From positions 63,909-127,908 of the forward strand of contig JAHOYT010000011.1 of assembly GCA_019038645.1 (NCBI GenBank): a DNA stretch of 64,000 nucleotides, in the 5' to 3' direction. Origin of the DNA: Bacteroidales bacterium (lineage in GTDB: Bacteria > Bacteroidota > Bacteroidia > Bacteroidales > UBA12077). The position numbers and the translations under genes are program-made. Below, in pieces: positions 38,544 to 61,640 of the stretch; the first letter of the stretch is position 1, and every line of letters begins with the position of its first letter. The notes under the pieces are model-generated. The model had not been told where the DNA came from and did not search any database. It saw only the letters and a list, made by a program, of their open reading frames with translations.

Positions 38544-38582
38544 AGAAATTATTGTAATAAAAATAAAATTAAGAATAAAAAC

Positions 38583-42739: not shown

Positions 42740-43261
42740 TTATTGTGTTAAAGGGTTTGGATGAGCGATTTTTGCTACAGCCTCTTCATAATTGAATTCT
42801 TTATAAGTAGGACTCTCTTCATTATGACATGTTACACAAACAGCTTCTACAGGTAAAATCAGGCCATTATCTAAACTCTTTTGCTGATCTTTCATAACAG
42901 ACATAGACTTATATTTACTTCCTGGTCCATGGCATGATTCACATGAAACACCTTCTTTGGCAGTAATTGTTAACATTAGATCTTCGCTGGCTGCATGATA
43001 AGTTGAGTGACACTTTAAACATTTTGGATCATTTTGTGGATCATCTGAGAATTTTTTTGATTCTTCGCTTGCCAATGTTTCATATGCTTTTGCATGAAGT
43101 TTACTTTTCCATGTGTCGTATTGTTTACCTTTTGCCTCTTTATTATGGCACATTTTACATTTCGCAGCACCAATATATTCATAATCTTGTGCCTTTGACA
43201 GACTAACTACAAGAAAAACAGAACAGGCAATTAATAATAATTTTTTTAAATTCATAATCAT
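42740..43261 (-). CDS. Periplasmic tetrahaem cytochrome c (c554-like family)
   Basis: Signal peptide plus CKMCH, CLKCH, CESCH (in GVSCESCHGPGS) and CVTCH. Confidence 0.8.
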   Translation of the reverse strand: MIMNLKKLLLIACSVFLVVSLSKAQDYEYIGAAKCKMCHNKEAKGKQYDTWKSKLHAKAYETLASEESKKFSDDPQNDPKCLKCHSTYHAASEDLMLTITAKEGVSCESCHGPGSKYKSMSVMKDQQKSLDNGLILPVEAVCVTCHNEESPTYKEFNYEEAVAKIAHPNPLTQ

Positions 43262-43536: not shown

Positions 43537-44157
43537 TTATTCCGCTTCATGGTATCCTGTTATGATACTTTTAAAGTTTTTTAGAGGATGCTTACCGATA
43601 GTAATTACGTATAAATGAATTATTAAAAAAATCAGGATAAAAAATCCTGCAATCGAATGGAAGAAAGTAGTTAATCTAATTCCACTCATATCATAGAATT
43701 TTTCAATAATCATTTCAGGAAATAATAATGCAACACCTGTAATTATAACCACAGGAACTAACAGATACATTGTCCCAAAGTAAGATACCTTTTGTAGTGG
43801 GTTAAACTTTTCTTCCTCAGAAATATGAAATGGTTTTGGTTCTCCTTTCAAATATCCAAAAACATAATATTTTCCTTGTTTATATAATCTGTCAATTAAA
43901 CCTTTTAATTTAAGTTTATAATGCTTATTATTTCCGGTAAGAATACCTGCAATGAAAAAGAAAGAATAACTTATTATAATAACAACACCAATAAAATTAT
44001 GCAAAGAAACAGCAGAATTAAATCTTATTAATGGAGATTCTAAATTTGTAAATTGCATACTAATACCTGTAATACCTAAAAGTATTATGCTAATGGCATT
44101 AATTACATGCCATATTCTTAACCAAACAGGATAAAGATATAATCTATTATTGCTCAT
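43537..44157 (-). CDS. Dihaem b-type cytochrome membrane subunit (FdnI/HydC/PhsC-like)
   Basis: 206 aa, 4 TM helices with conserved His residues (RIWHVINA, SLHNFIG, FFHSIAG, IIHLYV). Starts 2 nt after the upstream 7-haem gene. Confidence 0.75.
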   Translation of the reverse strand: MSNNRLYLYPVWLRIWHVINAISIILLGITGISMQFTNLESPLIRFNSAVSLHNFIGVVIIISYSFFFIAGILTGNNKHYKLKLKGLIDRLYKQGKYYVFGYLKGEPKPFHISEEEKFNPLQKVSYFGTMYLLVPVVIITGVALLFPEMIIEKFYDMSGIRLTTFFHSIAGFFILIFLIIHLYVITIGKHPLKNFKSIITGYHEAE

Positions 44158-44158
44158 T

Positions 44159-45085
44159 TTATTTACGTTTAATAATTCTTAAAAATGTATGTAAAAATAT
44201 TCCAGATAATGTAAGGCCAAAAATAATTAAACTAATTAAATTGACATAACTATTTCTATTTGCCCCAATCATATACGCATCATTAAGAATAAATGAATTA
44301 TAAAAGTTAAATTCTGCACGATCTTCTTTTGATTGATGTTTATATAGCTTGTCACGTAAGGATGAATTTGATGAATGACATTCAACGCAATTACGTACAG
44401 CCTGTTCTTTTGGAACAATATGGTGAACCGCATCAGCAGTGTCTGTAACTGCAGTATGACATTCTATGCAACGGACTCTTGAAAAATGTAAAGCCTGATT
44501 TGGTAGCCAATCGTGGGTAGCAATCAATTGAGGATTTTCGTGGGTAGTATATATCTGATATTTATCAACATCATTATGACAGTTTAAACACCTGTTGTTA
44601 TTATATTGAACCAGTTCAGCCATATCAGACTTCACTAATTTATTTGAATGAGGATCATGGCACAACTCACAATTAAAAACATCACCAAAAGCTTCCATAT
44701 GAACGCTTTTTTTCACTTCCGAAGCAATTACCTCAAAAGCATGGCAATCCACACACGTCAGTTTTGGTTCAATTTTTAATTCACAATTATGAGGATAGGT
44801 GTTATACTCCTCGGAATGACAATCTGAACACGCAAGTGCGCTATGTTCTCCATGAAGATAACTAATTGAATCTATAACTAAATAAGGATTCATTAATTTA
44901 CGTTCAGTCAGTTCTGTATTTTCATTATAAAATGAATAATATTTGTGCCCATGGCATTTAAGACAAGTACTATTTGATTCAGGCATTTCAAGTATTTCCT
45001 CATTTTCCTGAGCTTGAACAATAAAATGAAAAGAAAAGAGAAATAAACTGATAATAATCAACTTCGTTGGTAAAACAATTTTCAT
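44159..45085 (-). CDS. Heptahaem cytochrome c with C-terminal membrane anchor
   Basis: Signal peptide. CLKCH, CSDCH, CVDCH, CELCH, CLNCH, CIECH, CVECH. C-terminal TM helix (LISLIIFGLTLSGIFLHTFL). Confidence 0.8.
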   Translation of the reverse strand: MKIVLPTKLIIISLFLFSFHFIVQAQENEEILEMPESNSTCLKCHGHKYYSFYNENTELTERKLMNPYLVIDSISYLHGEHSALACSDCHSEEYNTYPHNCELKIEPKLTCVDCHAFEVIASEVKKSVHMEAFGDVFNCELCHDPHSNKLVKSDMAELVQYNNNRCLNCHNDVDKYQIYTTHENPQLIATHDWLPNQALHFSRVRCIECHTAVTDTADAVHHIVPKEQAVRNCVECHSSNSSLRDKLYKHQSKEDRAEFNFYNSFILNDAYMIGANRNSYVNLISLIIFGLTLSGIFLHTFLRIIKRK

Positions 45086-45407: not shown

Positions 45408-48194
45408 ATGATTTTCAATCAATTTATTCCAAAAAGAAGCATTTGTTTATTTTCAGTTTTATTTTTTTTACAAATATCATTTACATATAGCCAGTCTGAT
45501 GAAGACTGTTTGACGTGCCATGAAGATACTGAACTAACGTCAGAAAAAAATGGAACTACAAAATCAATGTATGTCGATGGGACTATTTTAAAATATTCAG
45601 TTCATAAATCTGTTTCCTGTGCTTCATGTCATAAAGATGCTGATGTAAATGATTTTCCACATGATGAAAATTTAAGTAAAGTTAATTGTGGTGAATGCCA
45701 TGTAAATGCAGATGATAACTTTTATAAAGGGATTCATGGTCTGGCATTGAAATTAGATGAACCACATGCACCTACTTGTAAAGAATGTCATGGTGAGCAT
45801 TTAATATTACATCAGTCAAATCCAAAGTCTTTAACTTATAAAATGAATATCCCGGTTTTATGCGGTAAATGTCATAAAGAAGGAGCTCCTGTTGCGCGTG
45901 CTTATAAAATTACACAACATAATATACTGGATAATTATAGTCAGAGTATTCATGGATTAGGATTATTTAACAGAGGGCTAATTGTTACTGCAACCTGTAA
46001 CAACTGCCATGGTAACCATTTAATTTTATCACATACCAGTCCAAATTCTACTATTTCTGTTAATAATATTGCTGAAACATGTATGCAATGTCATGCCCGA
46101 ATCGAAGATGTTCATACTAAGGTTATAAAAGGTGAATTGTGGGAAGAATCTCCCGGAGCAATTCCAGCTTGTACTAACTGTCATCCTCCTCATAAGATTA
46201 ATACTCAGAACATTATGGCAACCATGTCAGACAAGTCTTGTTTACGTTGTCATAGCGATGATGACATTCACAAGATTGTTGATGGGGAAAAAATATCATT
46301 AAAAGTTGACAGAGCAGATCTGGATAGTTATGAACATAAAAATATAACATGTGTAAAATGTCATACTGATGTTTCACCATATTTAGAAAGACCATGTGAA
46401 ACCGCCATGGATGTAGATTGTGATAATTGCCATGCGGAAGTATCAAGCATATATTTTGCCAGCGGACATGGACAGGCATATTTCAGAAAAGATGAAAATG
46501 CCCCATATTGCACTGATTGTCATGGAAGCCACAAAGTAAGGTCCAGATATGATGAAGAAGCACAGACATACAGAACAAATATACCAAGCCTATGTGGTGA
46601 GTGCCATCAAAAAGATAATAAGGCAATTGAAGGTAAGGGATTAAAAGAACTTGATGCTTATTTGGATTATTCATCAAGCGTGCATGGTAAAAGTCTGGAA
46701 GAAAAAGGATTAACAATAAGTGCTGTTTGTATCGACTGCCATTCAACCCATAATATGCTAAAAGAATCTGATGAAAACTCGTCAGTTCATCCAAAAAATC
46801 TTCCTTCAACATGTGCAAAATGCCACAAACCAATATCTGACGAATATTTAGCAAGCGAACATTCAATTGAACATAATGATCCTGATAAAAAATTCCCGAC
46901 TTGCGCTAACTGTCATTCCGCACATGTTATTTCAAATATAGATCAGGATGAGTTTATGACAGAGATAACTCATCAATGTGGTTCTTGTCATGAAGATTTA
47001 TCGGAAACGTATTTAGATACGTATCATGGTAAGGCTTATCAGTTAGGTTATTTAGAAACTGCAAGATGTTCTGATTGCCATGGAGCTCATAAAATTTTAG
47101 ATGTGAATAATCCTGATTCCGAAGTTGGGATTCATAATATTGTTGCAACCTGTCAAAAATGCCATCCTGATGCAAACGAGAGATTTACAGGCTATTTAAC
47201 ACACGCAACTCATAACGATAAAAGTAAATATCCGGCACTATATTATGCTTTTTGGGCAATGACATTTTTACTTGTTGGTGTTTTTGGATTTTACGGAATT
47301 CATACTCTTTTATGGATTCCAAGGTCTATAATAGAGAGAAGAAAGGAAAAACATGTAAAACCAGAAGGGAAAATAAAATATATCAGGCGATTTGAATATA
47401 GTCAAAGAATCACACACCTTTTTGTAATTATGAGCTTTATTCTCCTTGCAATTACCGGGATGATAATAAAATTTGCACATATGGATTGGGCAAAATTTTT
47501 AGTAAAAGCAATTGGTGGTGCTTATAATGCAAGTATAATTCACAGGTTTGGTGCTGTAATAACGTTTGGTTACTTCGCTTATCATCTTTATTCCCTGATC
47601 AAATTAAAGATTAAACGAAAAAAATCATTTAGGAAATTCATTTTTGGCAGTAATTCATTAATGTTTAATATGCAGGATTGGAGAGATTTGTGGGCAACAT
47701 TAAAATGGTTTGTAGGGAAAAGTCCACGTCCAAATTACGGAAGATGGACATATTGGGAAAAATTTGACTATATGGCTGTTTTTTGGGGAGTAGCTGTTAT
47801 TGGATTTTCCGGATTAATGTTATGGTTTCCTGAGTTTTTCTCAAAGGCGTTACCAGGATGGGTTATTAATGTAGTTCAGATTATTCATAGTGATGAAGCT
47901 TTACTGGCAACAGGTTTTATCTTTACGGTTCACTTTTTTCATACTCATTTCCGCCCTGAAGCTTTTCCAATGGATACTGTTATTTTTACAGGACTTGTTC
48001 CGTTAGAAAATTTTAAAAAGGAAAGACCAAAAGAATATAATGAACTTGTGGAATCTGGTCGTTTGGAAGAACTTGTAGTTGAAAAAGAAATTACAAAATG
48101 GAAATTAAAACTTGTTAAAGCATTTGGATTCTTTTTCGTAGGAATTGGAATTACGTTGGTTATTCTTATAATATATTCTTTACTATCCGGGTAA
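45408..48194 (+). CDS. 19-haem cytochrome c fused to a C-terminal dihaem cytochrome b membrane domain (CbcL-like architecture)
   Basis: 19 CxxCH motifs counted in residues 34-585. Then about 5 TM helices with FdnI/PhsC-like His pattern (RITHLFVI, IIHRFGA, IIHSDEA, TVHFFHTH). Confidence 0.8.
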   Translation: MIFNQFIPKRSICLFSVLFFLQISFTYSQSDEDCLTCHEDTELTSEKNGTTKSMYVDGTILKYSVHKSVSCASCHKDADVNDFPHDENLSKVNCGECHVNADDNFYKGIHGLALKLDEPHAPTCKECHGEHLILHQSNPKSLTYKMNIPVLCGKCHKEGAPVARAYKITQHNILDNYSQSIHGLGLFNRGLIVTATCNNCHGNHLILSHTSPNSTISVNNIAETCMQCHARIEDVHTKVIKGELWEESPGAIPACTNCHPPHKINTQNIMATMSDKSCLRCHSDDDIHKIVDGEKISLKVDRADLDSYEHKNITCVKCHTDVSPYLERPCETAMDVDCDNCHAEVSSIYFASGHGQAYFRKDENAPYCTDCHGSHKVRSRYDEEAQTYRTNIPSLCGECHQKDNKAIEGKGLKELDAYLDYSSSVHGKSLEEKGLTISAVCIDCHSTHNMLKESDENSSVHPKNLPSTCAKCHKPISDEYLASEHSIEHNDPDKKFPTCANCHSAHVISNIDQDEFMTEITHQCGSCHEDLSETYLDTYHGKAYQLGYLETARCSDCHGAHKILDVNNPDSEVGIHNIVATCQKCHPDANERFTGYLTHATHNDKSKYPALYYAFWAMTFLLVGVFGFYGIHTLLWIPRSIIERRKEKHVKPEGKIKYIRRFEYSQRITHLFVIMSFILLAITGMIIKFAHMDWAKFLVKAIGGAYNASIIHRFGAVITFGYFAYHLYSLIKLKIKRKKSFRKFIFGSNSLMFNMQDWRDLWATLKWFVGKSPRPNYGRWTYWEKFDYMAVFWGVAVIGFSGLMLWFPEFFSKALPGWVINVVQIIHSDEALLATGFIFTVHFFHTHFRPEAFPMDTVIFTGLVPLENFKKERPKEYNELVESGRLEELVVEKEITKWKLKLVKAFGFFFVGIGITLVILIIYSLLSG

Positions 48195-48286: not shown

Positions 48287-49153
48287 TTATTGGAATCTCA
48301 CAATAATATTAAACCCTAGTAATATTCCTTCGCTATCAAATTTGTTTGTATTCATTACATAATTCTTTTGTGCCATAATTCCCTGGTAATTTGTGGCAAA
48401 AACTTGAAAAGCATGTGTTGGAGTACTGATTTCTAATCCAAAAGCAATTCCTGGCTGAATTTCATAAGAATAATCCCGAACAGAATTGATATTTATTGGT
48501 TGATGATATTCGAACATAGCTGACATTGTACCCGTAAATTTATATCGGCCACCAACCATTACTCCGGATTTATTATTCTGATAAACACTGTCGACAGCGT
48601 TAAAATGCGAATAACTTGGGGCTAATTGTACCGATAATGCGTCGGTAAATTTTCGGGAAACAATAATTTGAGTAAAGTATGAGAAGCGATCAGTGAATTC
48701 ATAATTACCACCAAAAAATTGATCCTCTCTGGTATCAACTGTTACATTAGCATGAACTGATAATGAAACAGGCATGCTGCCGGATCTTGTTTGTTGCAGA
48801 ATTGCGTATTTACCATTAAGATCCTGGAACTTATTAGCTTTTTCTGTTCCAATTCCAATGGTTAATTTGTCGGTAATTCCGTATTGTAAACCCATTCTTA
48901 TATTTGATGCAGCATAGATTCCAAACAAATCAGTAAATCCATTATCCATTCCACCAAAACGGTGATGTATAATTAGTTCCAGTGATTTCGCAGTAGAACC
49001 TATAATTGTTTGACTTTCAATTAAGGTTGATGCTTCCCAGGGCATATAAACAGGTTTTTCTACTTTTTTTTCAGTTTCTTCCTGCGCAAATGCAATAGTG
49101 CTGGTTGCAGCAATTAATAATGTAATGAAAAATTTGAAAGTGTATTTCTTCAT
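48287..49153 (-). CDS. Small outer-membrane beta-barrel protein (resembles DUF5777-type)
   Basis: Signal peptide (..STIAFAQEE), alternating amphipathic strands, C-terminal FNIIVRFQ. 35 nt downstream of the monohaem lipoprotein gene. Confidence 0.65.
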   Translation of the reverse strand: MKKYTFKFFITLLIAATSTIAFAQEETEKKVEKPVYMPWEASTLIESQTIIGSTAKSLELIIHHRFGGMDNGFTDLFGIYAASNIRMGLQYGITDKLTIGIGTEKANKFQDLNGKYAILQQTRSGSMPVSLSVHANVTVDTREDQFFGGNYEFTDRFSYFTQIIVSRKFTDALSVQLAPSYSHFNAVDSVYQNNKSGVMVGGRYKFTGTMSAMFEYHQPININSVRDYSYEIQPGIAFGLEISTPTHAFQVFATNYQGIMAQKNYVMNTNKFDSEGILLGFNIIVRFQ

Positions 49154-49188
49154 GATTTTAAATATTTATTTACAATACTTTAATTTTA

Positions 49189-49542
49189 TTAGTTGTCTAA
49201 AGCTCCTTCTTGTATCCATTTAAGAAGATAAGCGCTTTCTTCTGGTGTAAATGGATTACTACCATGTCCTTCATTTACTTTAATATAAATTTCACTTGAT
49301 GCAGGCTCATCAGTGTTAATGTAACCTCCATCCATTAAATTGGTATATTCATTTCCGTCAGTTAAAACCGGCTTAACGTTTGCATGACAGCTGGCACATT
49401 TTTGTTCAAAAATAGGTTTTATATGTTCTGTAAAGCTAAGTCCATCAGGTACCTCAAAAACCAAAGGTTCAATTACATTATATTCACATGATGAAGTACA
49501 GATTAAAATTAATCCTAAAATAAATAATAAACTTTTTTTCAT
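49189..49542 (-). CDS. Monohaem c-type cytochrome lipoprotein (PSCyt1-like domain), paralogue 1
   Basis: Lipobox ICTSSC, single CASCH, C-terminal LLKWIQEGA. Confidence 0.7.
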   Translation of the reverse strand: MKKSLLFILGLILICTSSCEYNVIEPLVFEVPDGLSFTEHIKPIFEQKCASCHANVKPVLTDGNEYTNLMDGGYINTDEPASSEIYIKVNEGHGSNPFTPEESAYLLKWIQEGALDN

Positions 49543-49855
49543 TTTCGTATCCTTTTCTTTATTTAAAAAAGCTGTTTAGTTCACTTAAACAACTTCTTAG
49601 GCAATATTAATATATTTTTTATATTAAAACAATGTAGCTGTTTAATGCCATTTAATTATATGACGAGTTACTACTTTAATTATGATTTTGATCAGTTATA
49701 AGGTAGCCATTTTATATTAAATTAATTCTTGTTAATAATTATTTAGTAAACTCAAGTATTTGTTTTTTAGAATTTTATGTACGAAATGAAAATAACCCGT
49801 TACAATAATTAATAATATGATAAAGAATAGGAAACTATATTTTAAAATGATTTTG

Positions 49856-50242
49856 TTAGTTGTTTTCAGCCCCTTCTTCTATCCATTTAAGAAGATAAGC
49901 TAATTCTAAAGGAGTATATGGATTACTACCCGGATGACCTAAATAGACTTTAACAAATAATTCACTTGATTCAGGATCGTTAGTATTAATGTAACCACCA
50001 TTAATTAAATTATCATATGCGCTACCGGTGATTAAAACAGGATTGGTTATAGAATGACAGGATATACATTTATCCTGAAAAACAGGTTCAATTTGTGCAG
50101 AAAAACTAATAGGGTCTGCAGGATCGTCAGGGTCATCAGGTAGCTCAGGTAACTCCCTTACAATTGGTTCAACTATCTTGTATTCACACGAAGTAATAAA
50201 GATAAAAACTAATCCTAAAATAATTAATAGACTCTTTTTCAT
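49856..50242 (-). CDS. Monohaem c-type cytochrome lipoprotein, paralogue 2 (Pro/Asp-rich linker)
   Basis: Lipobox FITSC, PELPDDPDDPADP linker, single CISCH, C-terminal LLKWIEEGA. Clearly paralogous to 49189-49542. Confidence 0.7.
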   Translation of the reverse strand: MKKSLLIILGLVFIFITSCEYKIVEPIVRELPELPDDPDDPADPISFSAQIEPVFQDKCISCHSITNPVLITGSAYDNLINGGYINTNDPESSELFVKVYLGHPGSNPYTPLELAYLLKWIEEGAENN

Positions 50243-50262
50243 TCTGGTATCTTTTAAAAATA

Positions 50263-50294
50263 AAGAAGTTGCTTAGATAACTAAGCAACTTCTT
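50263..50294 (-). terminator. Hairpin between the hexahaem gene and monohaem paralogue 2 (terminator or attenuator)
   Basis: AAGAAGTTGCTTAG-ATAA-CTAAGCAACTTCTT (14 bp). A T-rich tract follows on the minus strand. A degenerate copy lies at about 49566-49600, upstream of paralogue 1. Confidence 0.6.
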
Positions 50295-50311
50295 AAATAG
50301 GTTCAGTTTTT

Positions 50312-51433
50312 TTATAATGTTGCAGCTAATGTAATAGTGTTATCTAATAAAGTGATAATGTAATCCGGGTTGTGAATTCCAAGACTCTGATCTTCTGCAA
50401 TAATTAAATAGTTAAATACACATCTTCCTAGATCTGCAGCAACAGGATTGTCGCTATATCCACCATATCCTGCGCCCATTGCATGATATCCTACAGTGTC
50501 TATGGTCTCTACATGTTCTCCTAAAGTTTCGTTCCATACTGTTTCAGTTTCGGTGTCAGGATCCAAACCTCCTAATAATGCTAATGTTCTTCCTAAGCTA
50601 GTTAATTTGCCTTCAACCTCATCCTGAATTGCTTCAAGTTTATCTTCAATGTCACTATGGCAAGTAGTACAAGCAGACTCATCCAAAGCTAATGTGTGGT
50701 TACCTTCGTTCATGTGGCAAGTAATACAATCATGACTGAATGATGCTGATGGATCGAATGCTCCTGTTGGGTATCCGGTACCTACTTCAACTCCTCCTTG
50801 AGAATTTAATATATTTCCTTGTGGTCCATGGTGTGGTCCCCAATAATGAGATAAAGGTACATCAGCTGTAGAAGTAGCACTTGGTGCGCCTGTAGGATTA
50901 CGTGATTGGTGACACTGTACACACATGTTAACATCGTCCATATCTTCAAATTCACCTGAAGCAACATCTGTATTATCAATACCTAAAATTGTTTCAGTTA
51001 CCTGATCTGTAAAAGTTAATCCCCAGTCTGTTGCATCATTGGCTGTATGAATAGGGTGGCAAGCTTTACAACTAATTGCAGATTGATCAGTTAGGGCTAA
51101 ATCAAAAATTTCATCAGCAGAAGTAAAATCCATACGAGCTAAAAATCCTTCAGTACTGTGACATCCTGAACAGTCTCCACTTCGGGAAAAATATGTTCCT
51201 AATGAATGAGCAGATTCGTTGAATTGATCAACTTTAACATCATATTCGGTACCTTCATTATGGCAAGCCATACAAACAGCAGTACCATCACCACCGGTAG
51301 CCCCATCGACGCCGTCGACTCCGGCAATACCGTCAGTACCATCAATACCATCAATACCTGCAGGTCCTTCACAAGACATGAAGATTGCTCCAAAAAGGAA
51401 CAAAATACTTAATAATTTAATTAAATTTTTCAT
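50312..51433 (-). CDS. Hexahaem cytochrome c lipoprotein with N-terminal collagen-like Gly-X-Y repeat
   Basis: Lipobox FMSC. GPAGIDGIDGTDGIAGVDGVDGATGGDGT (9 G-X-Y triplets). CMACH, CSGCH, CKACH, CVQCH, CITCH, CTTCH. Confidence 0.8.
   Translation of the reverse strand: MKNLIKLLSILFLFGAIFMSCEGPAGIDGIDGTDGIAGVDGVDGATGGDGTAVCMACHNEGTEYDVKVDQFNESAHSLGTYFSRSGDCSGCHSTEGFLARMDFTSADEIFDLALTDQSAISCKACHPIHTANDATDWGLTFTDQVTETILGIDNTDVASGEFEDMDDVNMCVQCHQSRNPTGAPSATSTADVPLSHYWGPHHGPQGNILNSQGGVEVGTGYPTGAFDPSASFSHDCITCHMNEGNHTLALDESACTTCHSDIEDKLEAIQDEVEGKLTSLGRTLALLGGLDPDTETETVWNETLGEHVETIDTVGYHAMGAGYGGYSDNPVAADLGRCVFNYLIIAEDQSLGIHNPDYIITLLDNTITLAATL
51281..51367 (-). repeat. Coding triplet repeat for the collagen-like G-X-Y tract of the hexahaem lipoprotein
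   Basis: Residues 23-51 of the CDS. This DNA repetitiveness also generates the spurious ORFs 51199-51393(-) and 51206-51412(+). Confidence 0.8.
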
Positions 51434-51578: not shown

Positions 51579-51592
51579 TTGATATATATCAA
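51579..51592. promoter_or_regulatory. Perfect FNR/CRP-type box TTGAT-N4-ATCAA
   Basis: TTGATATATATCAA, centred about 62 nt upstream of the Crp/Fnr ATG (51648) and about 152 nt from the hexahaem gene start (51433). Confidence 0.55.
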
Positions 51593-51647
51593 TAAAGAAA
51601 TTAAGATTTGTATATCTTATTATGTACTTTTCAAAACTCAAAAATTA

Positions 51648-52343
51648 ATGATGGATTTAAATGCTAAGATATCGTGCAAAAATTGTAAACACGGCTGGGG
51701 AAATTTTAAAAATTTAACCGCTAAAGAACTTGAAATAGTAAATGAAAACAGATTTCAGGCTAATTTTCAGGCCGGGGAAATAATTTTTAAACAAGGCTCT
51801 CCTGTATCAAATGCAGTTTTTTTAATAAATGGAATGGCAAAAATATATATAGAGGGTTTTGATAAGAAAAGAATGATGGTGGGTATTGCTAAACCAAAGG
51901 CTTTAATTGCCGGACCGGGTACTTTTGTTGATGATAGACATCATTATTCTGTTGCTGCATTAACTGATGTTACAGCATGTTTTATTAAAATGGATGTTCT
52001 TAAGGATTTTGTGAATACTAATGGTAAATTTGCCGAAGGATGGTTGCGGGATATAAGTCAAAAAGCATTAGGAACGTTTTATAAATTTTTAAGTCACACG
52101 CAAAAAAAAATGCATGGTCGTTTGGCCGAGACATTATTGTATTTAGCTGATGAGGTTCACAATTCAGATGATTTTACGATGCTTTTATCAAGGCAAGAAT
52201 TAGGCGAATTGTCCGGAATGGCTAAAGAAAGTGTTGTTCGGATATTGAAAGATTTAGCACAAGATAATATTATAGAAGATAAATGTCCCCATATTAAAAT
52301 CCTGAATAGGAAAAAGCTTCAAATGATTTCAAATATGGGTTAA
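51648..52343 (+). CDS. Crp/Fnr-family transcriptional regulator
   Basis: cNMP-binding-like beta-roll (FQAGEIIFKQGSPVSNAVFLINGMAKIY) and C-terminal HTH (SRQELGELSGMAKESVVRILKDL). N-terminal CKNC. ATG at 51648. Confidence 0.85.
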   Translation: MMDLNAKISCKNCKHGWGNFKNLTAKELEIVNENRFQANFQAGEIIFKQGSPVSNAVFLINGMAKIYIEGFDKKRMMVGIAKPKALIAGPGTFVDDRHHYSVAALTDVTACFIKMDVLKDFVNTNGKFAEGWLRDISQKALGTFYKFLSHTQKKMHGRLAETLLYLADEVHNSDDFTMLLSRQELGELSGMAKESVVRILKDLAQDNIIEDKCPHIKILNRKKLQMISNMG

Positions 52344-52349: not shown

Positions 52350-55300
52350 ATGTATAAAATAAAAATTAAGTTTATGAAAAAGAAAAGTATCTTTCTGTTT
52401 ACTCCTTGGTTTATGGGAGTTTTGTTTATAGTGTTTGCGATGTCAATGGCTTTTGCAACATTTTATGAAAACGATTTTGGTGCAGTTGCGGCCAAAACAT
52501 TAGTTTATAACACTAAATGGTTTGAATTGTTAATGCTTTTAATGGTAATTAATCTTACCGGACAGGTATTTCAGTTTAAGTTATACAAAAGAAAGAAACT
52601 TACTATTTTACTATTTCACGCCGCCTTTGTTTTAATGATAATTGGTGCCGGAATTACACGTTATTTTGGGTTTGAAGGCGTTGTTCATATTCGTGAAAAT
52701 GATTCTCAAAATATTTGTACTTCAACAGATCAGTATTTGCAATTTAATGTTAGTAATTTAGACGGAAATGTTCTTTTTTCCGATTCAAAGAAATTATCTA
52801 TAACATCTGTAAAACAAGAAAAATATCATCAAGATGTAAAAATAGATGATGTAGATTATTCATTAAAATTTACTAACTATTTGACTAATGCAGTAGAGTC
52901 GATAGTTAATGTTGAAAATGGAGAACCTATGGTTTCTGTTTTAATATCAAGAGGAATGATGGGACGACAAACTATATTTTTGAAAAAAGGTGAAATTAAA
53001 AATGTGGGTGGAATTATGTTTGGTTTTGGCGAAGATGATTCTGTTGATGTGAGAATTACTATTCAGGATGATGCATTCAAAATACAATCGGAATATCCCA
53101 TTAGCGAAATAAGCATGATGTCGCAAAAAGCAACTATTCATGAACAAGGTGAAGCCATTCCGTTTGAAACTATGAAAATTTACCAGGTTAAAGGTTTATC
53201 TATTGTAGCTGAAGTGTTAAGCAAAAGTGGGGTTGTTAAAGTGGTAAATGCAGATTCCAAAACAAATACAACAAATAAAAGTGCTTTGGTTTTTGAATTG
53301 GTTCACGGAAATAAATTAACTGAATTAATTCTATTGAGAGCGCCGGGAATAAATAATACTACTAGATTTATTAATGGGGAGCATTCTATTGAGGTAAGCT
53401 ATAGTTCATTAGAAGTAGAATTACCGTTTAGCTTAAAGTTGGAAGATTTTATACTGGAAAGATATCCTGGTTCAAGTAGCCCTTCATCCTATAAGAGTGA
53501 TGTTGTATTAATAGATGAAAAGGAGGGTGTAAATATGCCTTATTCTATTTATATGAATCATATATTAAAATATAAGGGTTGGAGATTTTATCAATCGTCA
53601 TACGATCAGGATGAAAGAGGAACAATTTTATCTGTGAACAGAGATTTTGCAGGAATGTTTGTTACATATGTCGGATATTTTATATTATTCTTATTTATGG
53701 TACTATCATTGATTAATAAAAATTCAGCTTTTCGAACAGTTACTAAAAACTTTTTTAGATCAACTTCAGGTAAAGTAGTCAGTTTATTATTTTTATTTCT
53801 AAGTTCTTCATTACTGGCAAGTTCTCAAAATCAGAAATTAGTAGTACCCAAATCTCTTTCCAATGAGTTTGGAAAAGTATTAGTTCAGAATCAGAAAGGA
53901 AGAACTGAACCTATTTACGCTTTAAGCAACGATATTTTAAGAAAAGTAACCAAAGAAACAGAATTCGACGGGTATTCACCAATGCAGGTGTTTTTAGGAT
54001 TCTATTTTGATTTTCATAACTGGCAAAAGGTTCCGTTAATTAAAATTTCTAATGTTGATGTAAAAAAAGCAATTGGTATTAATGGAGATTATGCTGCATT
54101 TTCAGATATTGTTGATTTGCAGGAAAATAGTTATAAATTAAAACAATATGTGGATGCTGCTTATGCAAAGCCATCAGGAGCCAGAAATAAGTTTGATAAG
54201 GAAATTATTAAAGTAGATGAGCGCTTGAATATTTGCTTCATGATTTACTCAGGTGAGTTCATGAAAATATTACCGGTTAAAGATCATTCAATGAAATGGC
54301 ATTCACCAAAAGATGCTTATACATTTGTTGCAAACGCTGATGATTCACTGTACTTAAGAAATATTGTTGGTTTATTTGCTCAGGGAGTTGATATAGCGAA
54401 TACCTCTGGTGATTATACTCAGGCTAATGAAACTTTAAAATCAATAATTAATTATCAGAGAAATTTTGCGCAATATGAATTGCCGGATACAAGAAAGGTA
54501 AATGCGGAAATACTCTATTATAAATCCAAAATTTATGATAAACTTTTCCCTTTTTATGCTTCTATTGGATTGCTTCTTTTATTTATTCTGCTTTATGGAA
54601 TAATATCTCAGAACAAAAATCTTGGACTAATAATTAAAATTTTTACAGGACTTCTTATTGTAGGTTTTGTTTTTCATACAATGGGATTGACTATTCGATG
54701 GTATGTTTCGGGCCATGCACCAATGAGTAATGGTTATGAATCAATGATTTTTATTTCCTGGGTAACTATATTGGCCGGATTCTTTTTTGGTAAGCGATCT
54801 TCATTTGTTTTGGCTGCAACATCTGTTTTAGGTGGTTTTACACTTATGGTAGCACATTTAAGTTTTATGGATCCACAAATAACAAATCTGGTTCCGGTGT
54901 TGCAATCTTATTGGTTAACAATTCACGTTTCTGTTATTACAGGTAGCTACGGATTCTTAGGTTTAGGTGCTATAATAGGAATTATTGTACTAATTCTTTA
55001 TTCAATGATCTCGGAAAGTAATAAAGCAAATATATTATCAACAATAGAAGAGCTAACAATTATTAATTACAAAGCATTGACTATTGGCTTATATCTTCTT
55101 ACTATCGGAACTTTTCTGGGAGCTATTTGGGCTAATGAATCATGGGGCAGATATTGGGGTTGGGATCCAAAAGAAACATGGTCGTTGATTACAATTATTG
55201 TTTATAGTTTTGTTATTCACTCCAGAATGATAAAGGAATTAAAAGGATTTTATGCTTTTAATGTAATTTCATTATTTGCATTCTCTTCTGTGTTAATGAC

Positions 55301-55463
55301 CTATTTCGGTGTGAATTATTATTTGTCAGGATTACACTCATATGCGGGTGGAGATCCTGTGCCTGTACCTAAGTTTGTTTATGTAAGTATTTTCCTATTA
55401 GTTTCACTATCGATATTGGCTTACCAGAGATACAGGAAAATTTTATTAACAAATACAAAATAG
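52350..55463 (+). CDS. ccsBA: Fused system II cytochrome c synthase CcsBA (ResB + CcsA)
   Basis: N-terminal ResB-like TM and periplasmic domain. C-terminal CcsA with WWD motif WGRYWGWDPKETWS and conserved His. 1037 aa. Alternative start at 52374. Confidence 0.88.
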   Translation: MYKIKIKFMKKKSIFLFTPWFMGVLFIVFAMSMAFATFYENDFGAVAAKTLVYNTKWFELLMLLMVINLTGQVFQFKLYKRKKLTILLFHAAFVLMIIGAGITRYFGFEGVVHIRENDSQNICTSTDQYLQFNVSNLDGNVLFSDSKKLSITSVKQEKYHQDVKIDDVDYSLKFTNYLTNAVESIVNVENGEPMVSVLISRGMMGRQTIFLKKGEIKNVGGIMFGFGEDDSVDVRITIQDDAFKIQSEYPISEISMMSQKATIHEQGEAIPFETMKIYQVKGLSIVAEVLSKSGVVKVVNADSKTNTTNKSALVFELVHGNKLTELILLRAPGINNTTRFINGEHSIEVSYSSLEVELPFSLKLEDFILERYPGSSSPSSYKSDVVLIDEKEGVNMPYSIYMNHILKYKGWRFYQSSYDQDERGTILSVNRDFAGMFVTYVGYFILFLFMVLSLINKNSAFRTVTKNFFRSTSGKVVSLLFLFLSSSLLASSQNQKLVVPKSLSNEFGKVLVQNQKGRTEPIYALSNDILRKVTKETEFDGYSPMQVFLGFYFDFHNWQKVPLIKISNVDVKKAIGINGDYAAFSDIVDLQENSYKLKQYVDAAYAKPSGARNKFDKEIIKVDERLNICFMIYSGEFMKILPVKDHSMKWHSPKDAYTFVANADDSLYLRNIVGLFAQGVDIANTSGDYTQANETLKSIINYQRNFAQYELPDTRKVNAEILYYKSKIYDKLFPFYASIGLLLLFILLYGIISQNKNLGLIIKIFTGLLIVGFVFHTMGLTIRWYVSGHAPMSNGYESMIFISWVTILAGFFFGKRSSFVLAATSVLGGFTLMVAHLSFMDPQITNLVPVLQSYWLTIHVSVITGSYGFLGLGAIIGIIVLILYSMISESNKANILSTIEELTIINYKALTIGLYLLTIGTFLGAIWANESWGRYWGWDPKETWSLITIIVYSFVIHSRMIKELKGFYAFNVISLFAFSSVLMTYFGVNYYLSGLHSYAGGDPVPVPKFVYVSIFLLVSLSILAYQRYRKILLTNTK

Positions 55464-55825: not shown

Positions 55826-56521
55826 TTAACCTGTTTCACTTATTCTTTTTAAACGGTTGTAATCAATTATTTTGAGTTTCTTCCCTTCAATTTCAATTAA
55901 TTTATCTTCTTTAAACTTTTTTAGCATTCTTATAACAGTTTCTGCACTCATCGTCGATAATTCCGCAATATCTTTGCGTGACAATACCAAATCAAACTCT
56001 CTTTCTTTAAAAACTCTGTCAGACAAACACAAAATAATATCAGCTAATCTTCCGTATGATTGTTTGTGAGTAAGACAAAAAAAGCGACTATTAATTTGAA
56101 CACTTTTTGCACTTAAGATATCAATAATGCTTTTTGCAAAGCCAGAATTCTTATTTAGTAATTTTCTGAAAGCTACAACATTAATTTGATTTACTATAGT
56201 ATCCACATAAGCCATTGCTGAATATTGAAAAGTAGTATATTCTTCATTAACTGAAGTTAGTCCAAGCATGCTTCCTTCGGGAATCATTTTTAAAACTAAA
56301 GAATTAATCCCGTCATCAATATAAACTTTAATCAACCCACTCTCAACAGACATGATGTGTGATGCATAACTCCCTTGTTTGCATATAATCTCTCCCTTTT
56401 TGTATTTTATCTTTACTGTATTCTCATCCAGAAATTTCGTTTCTTTTTTATTCAATTTATCAAAACATATACAGGGATCTAAACTTATAGTACAACCCGA
56501 ATATTGAATTTCCTTCGCCAT
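55826..56521 (-). CDS. Crp/Fnr-family transcriptional regulator (Cys-rich N-terminus)
   Basis: N-terminal C10/C17/C19 (GCTISLDPCIC), cNMP-like beta-roll, C-terminal HTH (SRKDIAELSTMSAETVIRMLKKF). Confidence 0.85.
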   Translation of the reverse strand: MAKEIQYSGCTISLDPCICFDKLNKKETKFLDENTVKIKYKKGEIICKQGSYASHIMSVESGLIKVYIDDGINSLVLKMIPEGSMLGLTSVNEEYTTFQYSAMAYVDTIVNQINVVAFRKLLNKNSGFAKSIIDILSAKSVQINSRFFCLTHKQSYGRLADIILCLSDRVFKEREFDLVLSRKDIAELSTMSAETVIRMLKKFKEDKLIEIEGKKLKIIDYNRLKRISETG

Positions 56522-58067: not shown

Positions 58068-58113
58068 ATAAATTAATCAATAAATATGTTTTACAAAAAT
58101 TAAAATTATTATT

Positions 58114-59079: not shown

Positions 59080-59101
59080 TAATATTGAAAATACTATTAT
59101 G

Positions 59102-59134
59102 AAAAGAGATTGCACATTTGCAATCTCTTTTTTT
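59102..59134 (+). terminator. Rho-independent terminator after the rhodanese gene
   Basis: AAAAGAGATTGCA-CATT-TGCAATCTCTTTT plus a T-run. Confidence 0.8.
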
Positions 59135-59180
59135 AGTATTAACTATTTATAATAACAAATAATTTTTGAGCTTCAATATT

Positions 59181-60494: not shown

Positions 60495-60941
60495 TTAATG
60501 GTTTATAATATTTAAAATATTGCATGCTGTTTCCATTACAATTTCCGAAATTTCTTCACCAAAATCAATATTTTTTGGTTGAATACCTAAAATAAATACC
60601 GGCATTTTAAATAATTCTGATATTCTTTTTAGTGAAATATTATGTGTATTTAAAGTAAAATCTTTTACTTTTTCAGCAGGGAGTAATTCGTAATATCCCG
60701 CTTGTTTGCCAAACTCAACACAGTCAACAAGTATAAGAACATCAGGACTTAATGAATTTATTTTACCAATATAATTTTCGATACTAATTTCAACGCTTAA
60801 CTTTTGAATTGATGATGAATCCTTTATATTATCACAAATATAAACACCTATTCCATCATCACTTTTTAAAACATTTCCAATCCCAACAAAGAGTTTCTTT
60901 TTATCCGGTTGTGTTATTAAACTGTTTAAGTTTTCAATCAC
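60495..60941 (-). CDS. [NiFe]-hydrogenase maturation endopeptidase (HycI/HybD family)
   Basis: FVGIGNVLKSDDGIG N-terminal motif and a later VDC.. region. 148 aa. 4-nt overlap with the upstream 4Fe-4S gene. Confidence 0.75.
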   Translation of the reverse strand: MIENLNSLITQPDKKKLFVGIGNVLKSDDGIGVYICDNIKDSSSIQKLSVEISIENYIGKINSLSPDVLILVDCVEFGKQAGYYELLPAEKVKDFTLNTHNISLKRISELFKMPVFILGIQPKNIDFGEEISEIVMETACNILNIINH

Positions 60942-61552: not shown

Positions 61553-61640
61553 TTTAGTTCAAAGTTTTGAGTTTTGAGTTTTGAGTTTCGAGTTTAGCGT
61601 TTCGAGTCATAATAACTCTGAACTTTAAACTCTGAACTTT
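61553..61640. repeat. Intercistronic heptamer tandem repeat with complementary arm, between mnhG and the 4Fe-4S gene
   Basis: GTTTTGA x3, then GTTTCGA, GTTTAGC, GTTTCGA (61564-61605). Followed by AACTCTG AACTTTA AACTCTG AACTTTT. Confidence 0.6.

Follow-up and report, generated by a model that had tools for sequence, protein, structure and literature searches.

Pairing of a monohaem lipoprotein gene with a DUF5777 barrel gene in Bacteroidota suggests an undescribed mode of electron transfer at the outer membrane

We examined a 64,000-nucleotide stretch of a Bacteroidales genome (GCA_019038645.1, contig JAHOYT010000011.1, positions 63,909 to 127,908; here called the window), in which an initial annotation had singled out four adjacent genes as an outer-membrane module. 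A check of the open reading frames placed all four on the minus strand. In the order of transcription, the locus comprises the following features:

50312..51433, minus strand: HEXA, a hexahaem c-type lipoprotein (373 aa, six CxxCH)
51278..51367, minus strand: collagen-like (Gly-X-Y)x10 spacer, HEXA residues 23-52, read from the sequence
50263..50294, minus strand: terminator- or attenuator-like hairpin just after the HEXA stop codon (14-bp stem, then a T-run; -19.4 kcal/mol, z = -8.1)
49856..50242, minus strand: mono2, monohaem c-type lipoprotein paralogue 2 (128 aa, lipobox ITSC, one CxxCH)
49571..49598, minus strand: degenerate copy of the hairpin, upstream of mono1 (fold -10.8 kcal/mol, z = -2.9)
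49189..49542, minus strand: mono1, monohaem c-type lipoprotein paralogue 1 (117 aa, lipobox TSSC, one CxxCH)
48287..49153, minus strand: DUF5777 outer-membrane beta-barrel (288 aa, 12 predicted strands)

Much of the initial annotation of these genes was borne out. All four products carry an export signal, and three have lipoboxes (FMSC at the end of the HEXA signal peptide, with Cys21 as the lipobox cysteine; ITSC in mono2; TSSC in mono1). The gap from mono1 to the barrel gene downstream measured 35 nt, the value given earlier, and 313 nt separate mono2 from mono1. The suggested DUF5777 identity of the barrel was upheld by a Pfam match along its full length (PF19089, E = 5e-72; 242.6 bits against a cut-off of 23.1). 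An AlphaFold2 model (pLDDT 81, pTM 0.75) has 12 strands, at the low end of the 12 to 16 anticipated, and agrees with the claim that the barrel is too small to sheathe a decahaem cytochrome. The signal peptide proposed for this 288-aa protein is present, ending between AFA and QEE, but the C-terminal aromatic residue is not: the last residue is Gln and the penultimate one Phe, a terminal Phe being found in many homologues. Foldseek matched the model to generic small barrels only (NanC, FapF, OmpG, and Tsx), with two autotransporters further down the list; by Pfam, the barrel had no detected homology to those of Slam (DUF560), autotransporters, or intimin. At the presumed lumen-facing positions of the strands, Arg, Glu, Asn, Gln, Lys, and His residues are highly conserved, a pattern that would not be expected of a non-specific anchor. 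A full-text literature search found no paper naming DUF5777.

The proteins encoded by mono1 and mono2 are 60% identical, mono2 carrying an extra Pro/Asp-rich linker insertion, and mono2 too is a member of the family that adjoins DUF5777 barrels. At the DNA level, the unit of hairpin plus monohaem gene is 83% identical to the neighbouring copy. Judged by sequence, the second monohaem gene is a recent, lineage-specific tandem duplicate. Across the family, the lipobox cysteine is conserved and is followed by an unusually well kept mature N-terminus, C-E/D/Q-Y/W-x-x-I-x-P (C-E-Y-x-x-I-E-P in mono1), and then by a variable acidic, Pro-rich linker. The haem motif is retained in all members as CxxCH, CX3CH, or CX4CH, a distal His is conserved in most, and the C-terminal end is invariant (W-I-x-x-G-A-x-(N/D)-N in mono1). 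The joint conservation of N-terminus, haem motif, distal His, and C-terminus suggests a specific docking interaction.

In HEXA, the lipobox residue Cys21 is followed by a collagen-like spacer and then by a haem domain of OcwA/NrfA-like type, which includes C-terminal helices. Gly recurs at every third residue from 23 to 50, between the lipidated cysteine and the first of the CxxCH motifs (C54, C88, C122, C171, C236, and C255); the Pfam Collagen model stays below threshold (16.7 bits versus 27.2). The terminator-like hairpin in the HEXA-mono2 spacer sets HEXA off from mono2, and among 40 related hexahaem-to-monohaem spacers, about two thirds hold a hairpin with a stem of at least 10 bp at the same position, although the sequences differ.

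To ask how far these genes travel together, we carried out the co-occurrence analysis proposed in the initial annotation on 80 species-representative genomes, with one locus each. In 78/80 genomes, the gene immediately upstream of the barrel gene, and on its strand, encodes a monohaem homologue (median gap, 20 nt; some genes overlap), an adjacency that is far beyond chance and close to obligate and that agrees with the tight coupling suspected earlier. The pair stands beside a HEXA homologue and/or a quinol-dehydrogenase module in 79/80 loci, the sole exception ending at a contig end. HEXA itself has a homologue in 54/80 loci and none within 6 kb in the other 26/80. A heptahaem plus cytochrome b module accompanies the pair in 42/80 loci, an NrfC/NrfD-like module in 31/80, a class I cytochrome c in 48/80, and a divergent Crp/Fnr regulator in 61/80. 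Further afield, all five distant members of the monohaem family that were checked share a cluster with a DUF5777 gene, 0 to 3 genes away, as does the single barrel checked from a KSB1-labelled MAG with a monohaem homologue, and the cassette is present in cultured Carboxylicivirga (C. mesophila, for example) and Polaribacter. The four genes are not equal members of one unit: the invariant unit is a two-gene cassette of a monohaem c-type lipoprotein (~100 mature residues) and a 12-stranded DUF5777 barrel, mono2 being a duplicate and HEXA a frequent accessory. The earlier statement that a small PSCyt-like cytochrome recurs with DUF5777 in Bacteroidota was right as to recurrence, and we found no paper that explains the pairing; the PSCyt1 label, however, is not assigned by Pfam to the monohaem proteins of the window, PF07635 being present in more distant members of the family.

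In Flavobacteriia and Chitinophagia, the pair has other neighbours. There, it is clustered with a YceI-like protein (always) and a membrane-anchored OB-fold protein (usually), encoded between cytochrome and barrel, under a LytTR regulator, and multihaem cytochromes and quinol modules are absent nearby. Flavobacteriia also have a second barrel with YceI and the OB-fold protein that lacks its own cytochrome. The ancestral or general role of the cassette may be something other than respiratory electron export, and any mechanism proposed for it must also fit this arrangement.

In the window, the monohaem-barrel module is part of a large respiratory cytochrome island of ~18 kb (about 41 kb to 58 kb) with 54 CxxCH motifs. 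The other features of the island are as follows:

41155..42657, plus strand: hexahaem cytochrome with NapC/NirT-like N-terminal region (500 aa; PF03264, E = 1.6e-10)
42740..43261, minus strand: tetrahaem cytochrome c (173 aa)
43537..44157, minus strand: dihaem cytochrome b membrane subunit, PhsC/HydC-like (206 aa; Pfam Ni_hydr_CYTB, E = 2e-25)
44159..45085, minus strand: heptahaem cytochrome c with C-terminal membrane helix (308 aa)
45408..48194, plus strand: 19-CxxCH plus cytochrome b fusion of CbcL/MtrH/MtoC-type architecture (928 aa; Pfam multihaem domains, Ni_hydr_CYTB at residues 593-747)
51579..52343, plus strand: Crp/Fnr-family regulator divergent from HEXA, with an N-terminal CxxC motif (Pfam cNMP_binding and HTH_Crp_2)
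52350..55463, plus strand: fused CcsBA (ResB-CcsA) system II cytochrome c synthase (1037 aa; Pfam ResB and Cytochrom_C_asm)
55826..56521, minus strand: second Crp/Fnr-family regulator paralogue with an N-terminal Cys cluster, which clusters with the regulator at 51579..52343
56712..58067, plus strand: decahaem cytochrome c at the island edge (451 aa; ten CxxCH; Pfam Cytochrome_C7 and c3_2)

The fusion at 45408..48194 has the architecture of the CbcL/MtrH/MtoC quinol dehydrogenases (PMC6295460). The heptahaem and cytochrome b genes at 44159..45085 and 43537..44157 constitute the module counted in 42/80 loci; the best NCBIfam match of the cytochrome b is the PhsC model (E = 2.5e-50), below its cut-off. 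The counterparts of the divergent regulator in 61/80 loci occupy the same position, nearly all with the N-terminal Cys motif, and CcsBA is present in 15/80 loci. Hydrogenase genes lie on both flanks. The CbcL-type fusion, CcsBA, and the flanking hydrogenases mark a fermentative anaerobe that needs electron sinks.

Taken together, the side-by-side arrangement of monohaem lipoprotein and barrel in Bacteroidota suggests that electrons are handed on at the outer membrane in a manner not yet described. Our preferred reading, which we hold tentatively at a probability of roughly 0.4, is that the pair forms the outer-membrane station in an anaerobic chain for electron disposal, operating as a cytochrome-porin that is split and miniature. 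The oxidation of menaquinol would fall to the inner-membrane modules, namely, the CbcL-like 19-haem/cytochrome b fusion, the heptahaem protein with its cytochrome b partner, and, in relatives, the NrfCD-like pair. By way of cytochromes that are periplasmic or anchored in a membrane, electrons would then reach the monohaem lipoprotein at its barrel and go from there to an extracytoplasmic acceptor, either directly or through HEXA on its collagen-like tether of variable length. Because the barrel is too narrow to enclose the haem domain, it would act in one of two ways: by letting a small redox-active solute reach the haem, or by gripping the conserved N-terminal segment of the lipoprotein so that the haem comes to lie at the pore mouth. 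In principle, the pair would resemble Cyc2 rather than the sheath of Mtr or Pcc. We infer the outer-membrane location, the formation of a complex, the direction of electron flow, and the identity of the acceptor.

Several observations weigh against this proposal. Tunnelling from a single haem does not reach across the membrane, and a haem domain of ~75 residues does not fit into a 12-strand lumen, so the physical path of the electron is left unspecified. The Bacteroidota lipoprotein export signal, C-X-K-(D/E)2 or S-D-D-D-D (PMC5080379), has no match in the monohaem proteins (C-E-Y-K/N-...) or in HEXA (C-E-G-P-A-G), which would thus face the periplasm by default. The collagen-like stalk is non-conductive and, if rigid, would hold the HEXA head several nanometres from the membrane. 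HEXA also resembles NrfA-type enzymes, which reduce soluble substrates.

Alternatively, though we consider this unlikely, the barrel could be a dedicated display or anchoring device, its 12-strand lumen threaded either by the conserved N-terminal stretch of the monohaem lipoprotein or by the spacer of HEXA, which is rich in Gly; lipid anchor and haem domain would lie on opposite faces of the membrane, and the barrel would carry neither electrons nor solute. The strongly conserved mature N-terminus followed by a variable linker is consistent with such threading, tight gene coupling would suit co-assembly, and the lack of a canonical export signal means that surface exposure would need another route (PMC5080379). 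The strand count is that of barrels that hold one polypeptide segment, and FapF and two autotransporters are among the fold matches. In most of 57 HEXA homologues, a Gly-X-Y run directly follows the cysteine (usually 5-10 triplets, up to 15); even in the homologue L005, a 3-triplet spacer leaves 16 residues from this cysteine to the first haem cysteine, by estimate a barrel-crossing length. However, display leaves the electron route to a surface haem unexplained, the second flavobacterial barrel has no cytochrome of its own, and the Pfam comparison linked the barrel to none of the Slam, autotransporter, or intimin families.

The relationships of HEXA bring in another explanation, a form of periplasmic Nrf-like respiration, which we regard as doubtful. 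The HEXA family profile matches OcwA (6i5b, E = 4e-13), the S-layer undecahaem cytochrome of C. ferrireducens (6qvm, E = 2e-12), NrfA (E = 1.7e-10), and the octahaem nitrite reductase family, and OcwA is also the top Foldseek match of the HEXA model, with TM-scores that are modest (0.45) because the model contains no haems. By profile and predicted fold, HEXA is related to OcwA and NrfA. Only five invariant non-motif His residues serve six haems in the family, so that a Met ligand or an open site is conceivable at one of the haems. Under this explanation, the three lipoproteins would sit on the inner leaflet of the outer membrane, as the missing export signal predicts; HEXA, fed by the NrfCD-like modules found in 31/80 clusters or by cytochrome b modules via small cytochromes, would reduce a solute in the periplasm, and the barrel would be a channel through which a particular soluble electron acceptor or donor diffuses. 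The conserved polar lumen would fit a channel of this kind, and the specific channels NanC and Tsx are among the nearest fold relatives. Against this, HEXA lacks the CxxCK catalytic motif, its best matches are surface metal reductases rather than bona fide NrfA, and an obligately adjacent cytochrome would be superfluous for a plain channel; moreover, the pair persists in the 26/80 loci that have no HEXA gene within 6 kb, and in Flavobacteriia it does so where multihaem cytochromes are wholly absent.

Polyisoprenoids are ligands of YceI-family proteins, whose genes often neighbour that of cytochrome b561. It is quite improbable that what the barrel handles in the outer membrane is a hydrophobic molecule, redox-active or isoprenoid (e.g., a quinone-type mediator), delivered by YceI-type carriers where present and oxidised or reduced by the monohaem lipoprotein, so that electrons cross the outer membrane on a lipid-soluble carrier and not a protein wire: the YceI and OB-fold genes between cytochrome and barrel in Flavobacteriia and Chitinophagia favour this, and it would resolve the inability of one haem to span the membrane, but it is wholly inferential, and neither YceI nor the OB-fold protein occurs in the window or in its relatives.

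Among known systems, RcsF threads through OmpA, OmpC, and OmpF, and the linker of intimin and autotransporters passes through its own 12-strand barrel. These systems and the lipoprotein translocator Slam (DUF560) share with the cassette the genetic or physical pairing of a small barrel with a lipoprotein or linker peptide, and the 12-strand size would suit one threaded segment. Slam has a TPR domain, whereas the cassette barrel has neither a TPR domain nor detected sequence homology to these systems.

The best profile and fold matches of HEXA, OcwA of Thermincola potens and the C. ferrireducens undecahaem cytochrome, are cell-surface cytochromes of Gram-positive bacteria and share with it the spacing of haem motifs, a 'GPHHGPQ'-type segment (aligned with 6qvm), and C-terminal helices with an 'S-x-G-x-H-N' His. 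OcwA is a surface terminal reductase, and both are NrfA-superfamily members used as cell-surface reductases (PMC6703420). HEXA differs in having six haems against nine or eleven, in being a lipoprotein of a diderm, and in its collagen-like N-terminal spacer.

The porins of Geobacter Pcc are larger than the cassette barrel. Like the island, MtrCAB/MtoAB and Pcc (OmbB-OmaB-OmcB, Ext) combine a barrel, a cytochrome lipoprotein, and CbcL/MtrH-type quinol dehydrogenases (PMC6295460), with a multihaem lipoprotein as putative terminal reductase. In contrast to the 26-strand barrel that encloses a decahaem in Mtr-type complexes (PMC8406198, section 11), the cassette barrel has 12 strands and an obligate partner with one haem, and the barrel families are not homologous.

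The closest parallel in principle is Cyc2, a fused cytochrome-porin that serves as the Fe(II) oxidase of Acidithiobacillus, Zetaproteobacteria, and Gallionellaceae and shows that one haem with a small barrel is enough for a redox device in the outer membrane (PMC8406198). Like the cassette, it joins one c-type haem to a small outer-membrane barrel unable to sheathe a multihaem wire; electron exchange must occur at or in the pore, and each is a proposed entry or exit point of the respiratory chain. No sequence relationship was seen between the two. Cyc2 unites both parts in one polypeptide, with a barrel predicted to be OprP-like and to have 16 strands, whereas the cassette is encoded by two genes, for a lipoprotein cytochrome and a 12-strand DUF5777 barrel. 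The fermentative, anaerobic context of the cassette, with its quinol dehydrogenases, points to electron export rather than aerobic Fe(II) oxidation.

All four open reading frames (ORFs) that the initial annotation had proposed as an outer-membrane module were recovered by ORF read-out, lying head to tail on the minus strand:

51433..50312, minus strand: HEXA, the hexahaem lipoprotein, 373 aa, with lipobox FMSC making Cys21 the lipidation site
50242..49856, minus strand: mono2, a monohaem lipoprotein, 128 aa, with lipobox ITSC and one CxxCH
49542..49189, minus strand: mono1, a monohaem lipoprotein, 117 aa, with lipobox TSSC and one CxxCH
49153..48287, minus strand: the barrel, a DUF5777 protein of 288 aa, with a signal peptide cleaved between AFA and QEE

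The three lipoprotein assignments were borne out by these lipoboxes, and the claimed 35-nt gap between mono1 and the barrel measured 35 nt. The barrel had also been said to end in an aromatic residue; its last residue is in fact Gln, with Phe in the penultimate position, and many homologues do end in Phe. The monohaem proteins are 60% identical to each other, and their genes form a duplicated unit that includes the upstream hairpin and shares 83% DNA identity with the adjoining copy, from which we infer that the second monohaem gene is a recent tandem duplicate. Just past the end of HEXA, the window sequence forms a stable hairpin (−19.4 kcal/mol, z = −8), and about two thirds of related genomes have a HEXA-monohaem hairpin whose stem is 10 bp or longer, the sequences differing. 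This conserved hairpin suggests that HEXA is expressed at a level different from that of the monohaem-barrel pair and that the four genes do not form one uniform transcript. A sigma-70 promoter scan, which is ill-suited to Bacteroidota promoters, showed no excess of sites (21, compared to 19.5 in shuffled sequence).

The barrel alignment was scanned against one genome per GTDB species, yielding 282 confirmed relatives, of which the best 80 loci were kept. Nearly all of these 80 belong to Bacteroidota (Bacteroidales, Marinilabiliales, Saprospiraceae, and others), and ten are from Carboxylicivirga, nine of them from cultured strains; C. mesophila JCM 18290 and C. sediminis JR1 (loci L032 and L037) are among the carriers. 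In tblastn searches with the window proteins, a monohaem homologue was present in every one of the best 80 of 282 loci. In 78 of these 80 it lies directly upstream of the barrel on the same strand, so the recurrent cytochrome-barrel pairing put forward in the initial annotation is real. We refer to a monohaem lipoprotein gene with its adjoining DUF5777 barrel gene as the cassette. The median distance between the two genes is 20 nt, with some pairs overlapping, and they are separate genes in 80/80 loci. Two separately encoded monohaem copies were found in the window only, compared with the 80 loci.

For neighbourhood counts, all ORFs of the best 80 of 282 loci were clustered. A divergent Crp/Fnr regulator recurrently heads the series, with the hexahaem gene, the monohaem gene, the barrel, and quinol modules after it in that order. 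On the 3′ side of the barrel these modules comprise a heptahaem cytochrome with a PhsC/HydC-like cytochrome b, and/or an NrfC-like FeS protein with an NrfD-like membrane protein; the NrfCD-type order also has genes for an Ig-like membrane protein and a class I cytochrome c after the barrel. Among the best 80 of 282 loci, neighbours included the Crp/Fnr regulator (61 loci), the hexahaem gene (54), class I cytochrome c (48), heptahaem plus cytochrome b (42), NrfC-like plus NrfD-like proteins (31), and CcsBA (15), with both quinol modules in 9. In the co-occurrence analysis that the initial annotation had suggested, the hexahaem gene or at least one quinol module is found in 79 of these 80 loci, and the exception stops at a contig end. 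In about 8 to 9 genomes, an HmuY-like lipoprotein and a TonB-dependent receptor adjoin the cytochrome cluster (loci L002, L021, L029, L030, L035, L059, L075, and L076) and may supply haem for the many c-type cytochromes.

The barrel aligns with Pfam DUF5777 (PF19089) over model positions 3 to 247 of 247 (E = 5e-72; 242.6 bits against a gathering score of 23.1), and by this profile match it is a bona fide member of the family. Its AlphaFold2 model, built from a 19-sequence alignment (pLDDT 81, pTM 0.75), has 12 strands. This is the low end of the 12 to 16 first proposed, and the accompanying view that the barrel is too small to sheath a decahaem stands. All Foldseek matches of the model in the PDB were outer-membrane barrels, generic and small (NanC, FapF, OmpG, and Tsx; TM scores of ~0.4 to 0.6, with NanC at 0.63 on target), and the predicted fold is that of an outer-membrane beta-barrel. 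On the strands, positions alternating with hydrophobic residues are taken by highly conserved Arg, Glu, Asn, Gln, and Lys. It had been allowed that the barrel might be a characterised porin or transporter; we rejected this identification, as Pfam returned only DUF5777, NCBIfam nothing, and Foldseek against the PDB only generic small barrels. The family comprises 1,948 representatives at 50% identity. Among the best 150 of these, none of the four longer or multidomain proteins inspected was a cytochrome-barrel fusion; the four were N-terminal extensions without haem motifs or tandem barrels. One 615-aa family protein (P0264) consists of two fused DUF5777 barrels, and in one related locus (L074) the barrel gene is present as a tandem pair.

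An alignment of 78 of the 80 monohaem family members from related loci conserves the lipobox Cys and a mature N-terminus of the form C-E/D/Q-Y/W/K-x-x-I-x-P, which is followed by a variable acidic, Pro-rich linker. Every aligned member keeps the haem motif, as CxxCH in most; a distal His is conserved in most members, with Met in a few, and the C-terminal end W-I/L-x-x-G-A-x-N/D-N is invariant. Of the 80 family members from related loci, 79 have a single haem motif; the other is a four-domain fusion (L018), a 398-aa ORF upstream of the barrel with four CxxCH and several monohaem domains fused. The haem attachment site is kept across homologues with variable spacing: CX4CH (usually CN-x-SGCH) occurs in the Saprospiraceae/Lewinellaceae loci L036, L048, L055, L057, L060, L064, L066, and L070 and also in L024, L038, and L080, and CX3CH occurs in L031. 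The initial label "PSCyt-like" is right only in a loose sense. PF07635 (PSCyt1) gave no match to the window monohaem proteins in Pfam even at E <= 1, with weak matches around CxxCH only, but a monohaem profile search returned 174 relatives, among which distant members of 218 to 234 aa do carry PF07635. One Carboxylicivirga family member bears the UniRef name "Cytochrome C Planctomycete...".

The published Bacteroidota lipoprotein export signal is C-X-K-(D/E)2-X, or S-D-D-D-D/S-D-D-F-E, at positions +2 to +6 (PMC5080379). It is absent from the window monohaem proteins, which start C-E-Y-K-I-V-E and C-E-Y-N-V-I-E, and from window HEXA, which starts C-E-G-P-A-G. HEXA homologues that start C-T-K-E-G-P or C-V-K-E-G-P match half of the rule.

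In HEXA, Cys21 is followed by Glu22 and then by a stretch of ten Gly-X-Y triplets, with Gly recurring every three residues between 23 and 50; the six CxxCH motifs begin at C54, C88, C122, C171, C236, and C255. Most of 57 homologues from related loci carry a Gly-X-Y run directly after the lipidated Cys, usually of 5 to 10 triplets and at most 15. Pfam Collagen (PF01391) scores 16.7 bits on window HEXA against a threshold of 27.2; several homologues have a precomputed PF01391 match, and one is named "collagen-like protein" by NCBI. This spacer suggests a trimeric reductase on a stalk. The HEXA search returned 613 relatives, with a functional name on none of the 120 listed. The family profile matched OcwA (6i5b; E = 4e-13), the C. 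ferrireducens S-layer undecahaem cytochrome (6qvm; E = 2e-12), NrfA (3ubr; E = 1.7e-10), and MtrC (E = 1.5e-6). The alignment spans CxxCH(M), CxxCH, and "D-x-S-x-G-x-H-N" segments, that is, the last haem motifs, C-terminal helices, and a conserved His. Foldseek with the AlphaFold2 model (pLDDT 74) ranked OcwA, 6qvm, and NrfA enzymes in that order. OcwA, a member of the NrfA superfamily, acts as a terminal reductase at the cell surface and also turns over nitrite slowly (PMC6703420). For its six haems, HEXA offers only five invariant His outside the haem motifs, along with a Met that is nearly invariant behind motif five, so one haem may be His/Met-ligated or open. The CxxCK catalytic motif of canonical NrfA is absent and the six CxxCH are invariant in 26 homologues; HEXA is therefore not a canonical NrfA. 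From its profile matches and motifs, we assign HEXA as a pruned six-haem form of the NrfA/OcwA superfamily with a collagen-like tether, a form of which no description was found in the searched literature. The sole paper retrieved with both "collagen-like" and "multiheme" was an unrelated protein-design review, and a collagen-like spacer on a multihaem cytochrome appears to be undescribed. In a metagenome-assembled genome (MAG) labelled Neomarinimicrobiota (L090, 938-3629), the neighbours of a hexahaem homologue are DUF1302 and TP_0789-like (LolA-like) genes and not DUF5777; NCBI calls this homologue "collagen-like protein".

Beyond these loci, a distant barrel subfamily occurs in a second arrangement, detected in a TARA Oceans contig, Polaribacter sp. 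Hel1_85, a Chitinophagaceae MAG, and two further MAGs (one Flavobacteriales). A metagenome scan with one distant barrel (P0344) gave three loci, one of them informative. The usual order is a LytTR regulator, a monohaem-family cytochrome c, a tRNA_anti-like OB-fold protein, YceI, and DUF5777, and the cytochrome c is 30% identical to mono1 and of the His/Met type. Such Flavobacteriia/Chitinophagia-type cassettes are present in L081 (345-5807), L084 (1732-7205), L085, L087, and L088, the OB-fold gene being absent in L088; L081 and L084 each carry an additional, divergent OB-YceI-barrel set that lacks a cytochrome. At 8652-9422, some 3 kb away from its cassette, L081 further encodes a 256-aa candidate secreted haem protein that combines a single CxxCH with a Reeler domain and a type IX secretion C-terminal sorting domain; the Polaribacter locus lacks this gene. 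The multihaem/NrfCD arrangement was found in a Cyclobacteriaceae MAG and a KSB1-labelled MAG. All five distant monohaem relatives looked up share a cluster with a DUF5777 barrel, 0 to 3 genes away, which argues that the cytochrome-barrel link is ancient within the phylum; the multihaem context belongs to particular lineages.

In the window, the cassette lies in a cytochrome island of ~41.1 to 58.1 kb with 54 CxxCH motifs. The island encodes a hexahaem NapC/NirT-like protein, a tetrahaem cytochrome, a heptahaem and cytochrome b pair, a 928-aa fusion of 19 haem motifs with cytochrome b, HEXA/mono2/mono1/barrel, two Crp/Fnr paralogues flanking a fused CcsBA, and a decahaem cytochrome. Features of the island and its flanks are as follows:

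36883-40373, plus strand: three adjoining genes that look like a HydABC-type [FeFe]-hydrogenase of the NADH- and ferredoxin-linked type
45408-48194, plus strand: 928-aa fusion with 19 CxxCH and Ni_hydr_CYTB at residues 593-747 (Pfam)
51579-52343, plus strand, and 55826-56521, minus strand: Crp/Fnr-family paralogues flanking ccsBA, both with N-terminal Cys motifs
56712-59894: 451-aa decahaem cytochrome, two-domain rhodanese, and a DsbD_2-like membrane protein on the opposite strand
60495-63969, minus strand: MnhG and MnhE (Mrp/Mnh-type antiporter subunits) beside a 4Fe-4S protein and a HycI-like maturation protease

The 928-aa protein has the architecture of the CbcL/MtrH/MtoC quinol dehydrogenases, an N-terminal multihaem c domain with a C-terminal HydC/FdnI-type cytochrome b. 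Published proteins of this type span 416 to 1034 aa and 3 to 23 haems (PMC6295460), and the 19 motifs here are near the upper end. An N-terminal Cys motif (CxxC, CxxCxxC, or CxCxxC) is present in nearly all 64 cassette-adjacent Crp/Fnr homologues of other genomes, which, with the motifs of the window paralogues, suggests metal- or redox-sensing regulators. The decahaem cytochrome has homologues in 5 of the 80 related loci, and its region may be linked to sulfur compounds or thiol redox. The HydABC-type genes encode a thioredoxin-like 2Fe-2S protein, a NuoF-like flavoprotein, and an Fe-only hydrogenase large subunit with a small-subunit domain. MnhG, MnhE, and their 4Fe-4S and HycI-like neighbours suggest a membrane-bound Mbh- or Ech-like hydrogenase complex. 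The HydABC-type hydrogenase upstream and the Mrp/Mbh-like genes and HycI protease downstream give the host the look of a fermentative anaerobe and the island that of an electron sink.

The hedged interpretation in the initial annotation is partly supported, and from gene context and homology we infer, with a probability of about 0.4, that the pair is the outer-membrane station of an electron chain. Since the barrel could not sheath a cytochrome, the pair would have to act as a split, miniature cytochrome-porin, for which Cyc2, where one haem is joined to a 16-strand barrel in a fusion, offers a precedent (PMC8406198). Electrons would pass from menaquinol through cytochrome b/multihaem or NrfCD-type modules to periplasmic cytochromes, and from these through the monohaem protein at the barrel to HEXA or an acceptor. 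Such a conduit has weak points: a lone haem cannot bridge the membrane, the collagen-like spacer does not conduct, and the Flavobacteriia arrangement lacks multihaem cytochromes. It is somewhat doubtful, but a real prospect, that the pair represents a new phylum-wide class of outer-membrane redox device, unrelated to Mtr, Pcc, and Cyc2. In such a device, electrons would need no multihaem wire to cross the outer membrane; they would go either through a haem positioned at a narrow pore with a specific lining or by way of a lipid-soluble carrier handled by the barrel. It would be fed by multihaem cytochromes in anaerobic lineages and by YceI-type carriers in Flavobacteriia, and the collagen-stalked, OcwA-like hexahaem lipoprotein would be a trimeric terminal reductase.

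The monohaem proteins and window HEXA lack the Bacteroidota export signal (PMC5080379), which also counts against the split cytochrome-porin. A display or anchoring device, in which the N-terminal segment of the lipoprotein would thread through the barrel in an RcsF- or intimin-like manner, is unlikely. We would likewise give low odds to the barrel as a specific solute channel for periplasmic, Nrf-like respiration, with HEXA as the enzyme. Least probable of these is a hydrophobic redox mediator, where the barrel would handle a lipid-soluble carrier delivered by YceI-type proteins. Fe(II) oxidation by the island, as by Cyc2, is down-weighted, because the flanking hydrogenases, Crp/Fnr-type regulator, and CbcL-like modules point to electron export, although proteins of the CbcL type can run either way.

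Bacteroidota abound in sediments, guts, oceans, and bioelectrochemical reactors, and we know of no outer-membrane electron-transfer machinery defined for the phylum. Literature searches for "DUF5777" or "PF19089" found no paper, and searches on Carboxylicivirga cytochromes and Bacteroidota porin-cytochromes found nothing specific. The cassette occurs in at least 80 species-level genomes, and its barrel family, clustered at 50% identity, has ~1,950 representatives. Should the pair be the outer-membrane step of electron disposal, its two genes would serve as a marker of extracellular or periplasmic respiration in the phylum; the pair would also explain electron shedding by fermentative Bacteroidales and imply that a 12-strand barrel with one haem can replace large porin-decahaem complexes. 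The cassette is conserved across the phylum, uncharacterised, and carried by Carboxylicivirga type strains and Polaribacter isolates; its presence in these cultured organisms makes the questions directly testable. An anode-enriched Bacteroidetes MAG is reported to carry a cluster of six multihaem genes and one barrel (PMC8258643).

Compared with known systems, the cassette differs from Mtr and Pcc in its barrel and in its partner. Their large porin (26 strands in MtrB) encloses a periplasmic cytochrome of ~8 to 10 haems, whereas the cassette has a predicted 12-strand, 288-aa barrel and a single-haem partner (79/80 members from the best 80 of 282 loci). The counterpart of their surface multihaem lipoprotein reductase would be HEXA, a predicted lipoprotein that in the window is without an export signal. 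Cyc2 resembles the cassette in its single CxxCH haem, one motif being present in each window monohaem protein. In contrast, Cyc2 joins cytochrome and porin in one polypeptide with a 16-strand barrel, whereas the cassette comprises two genes in 80/80 loci and a barrel modelled with 12 strands. The cassette is thus like Mtr/Pcc and Cyc2 in logic but is a member of neither family.
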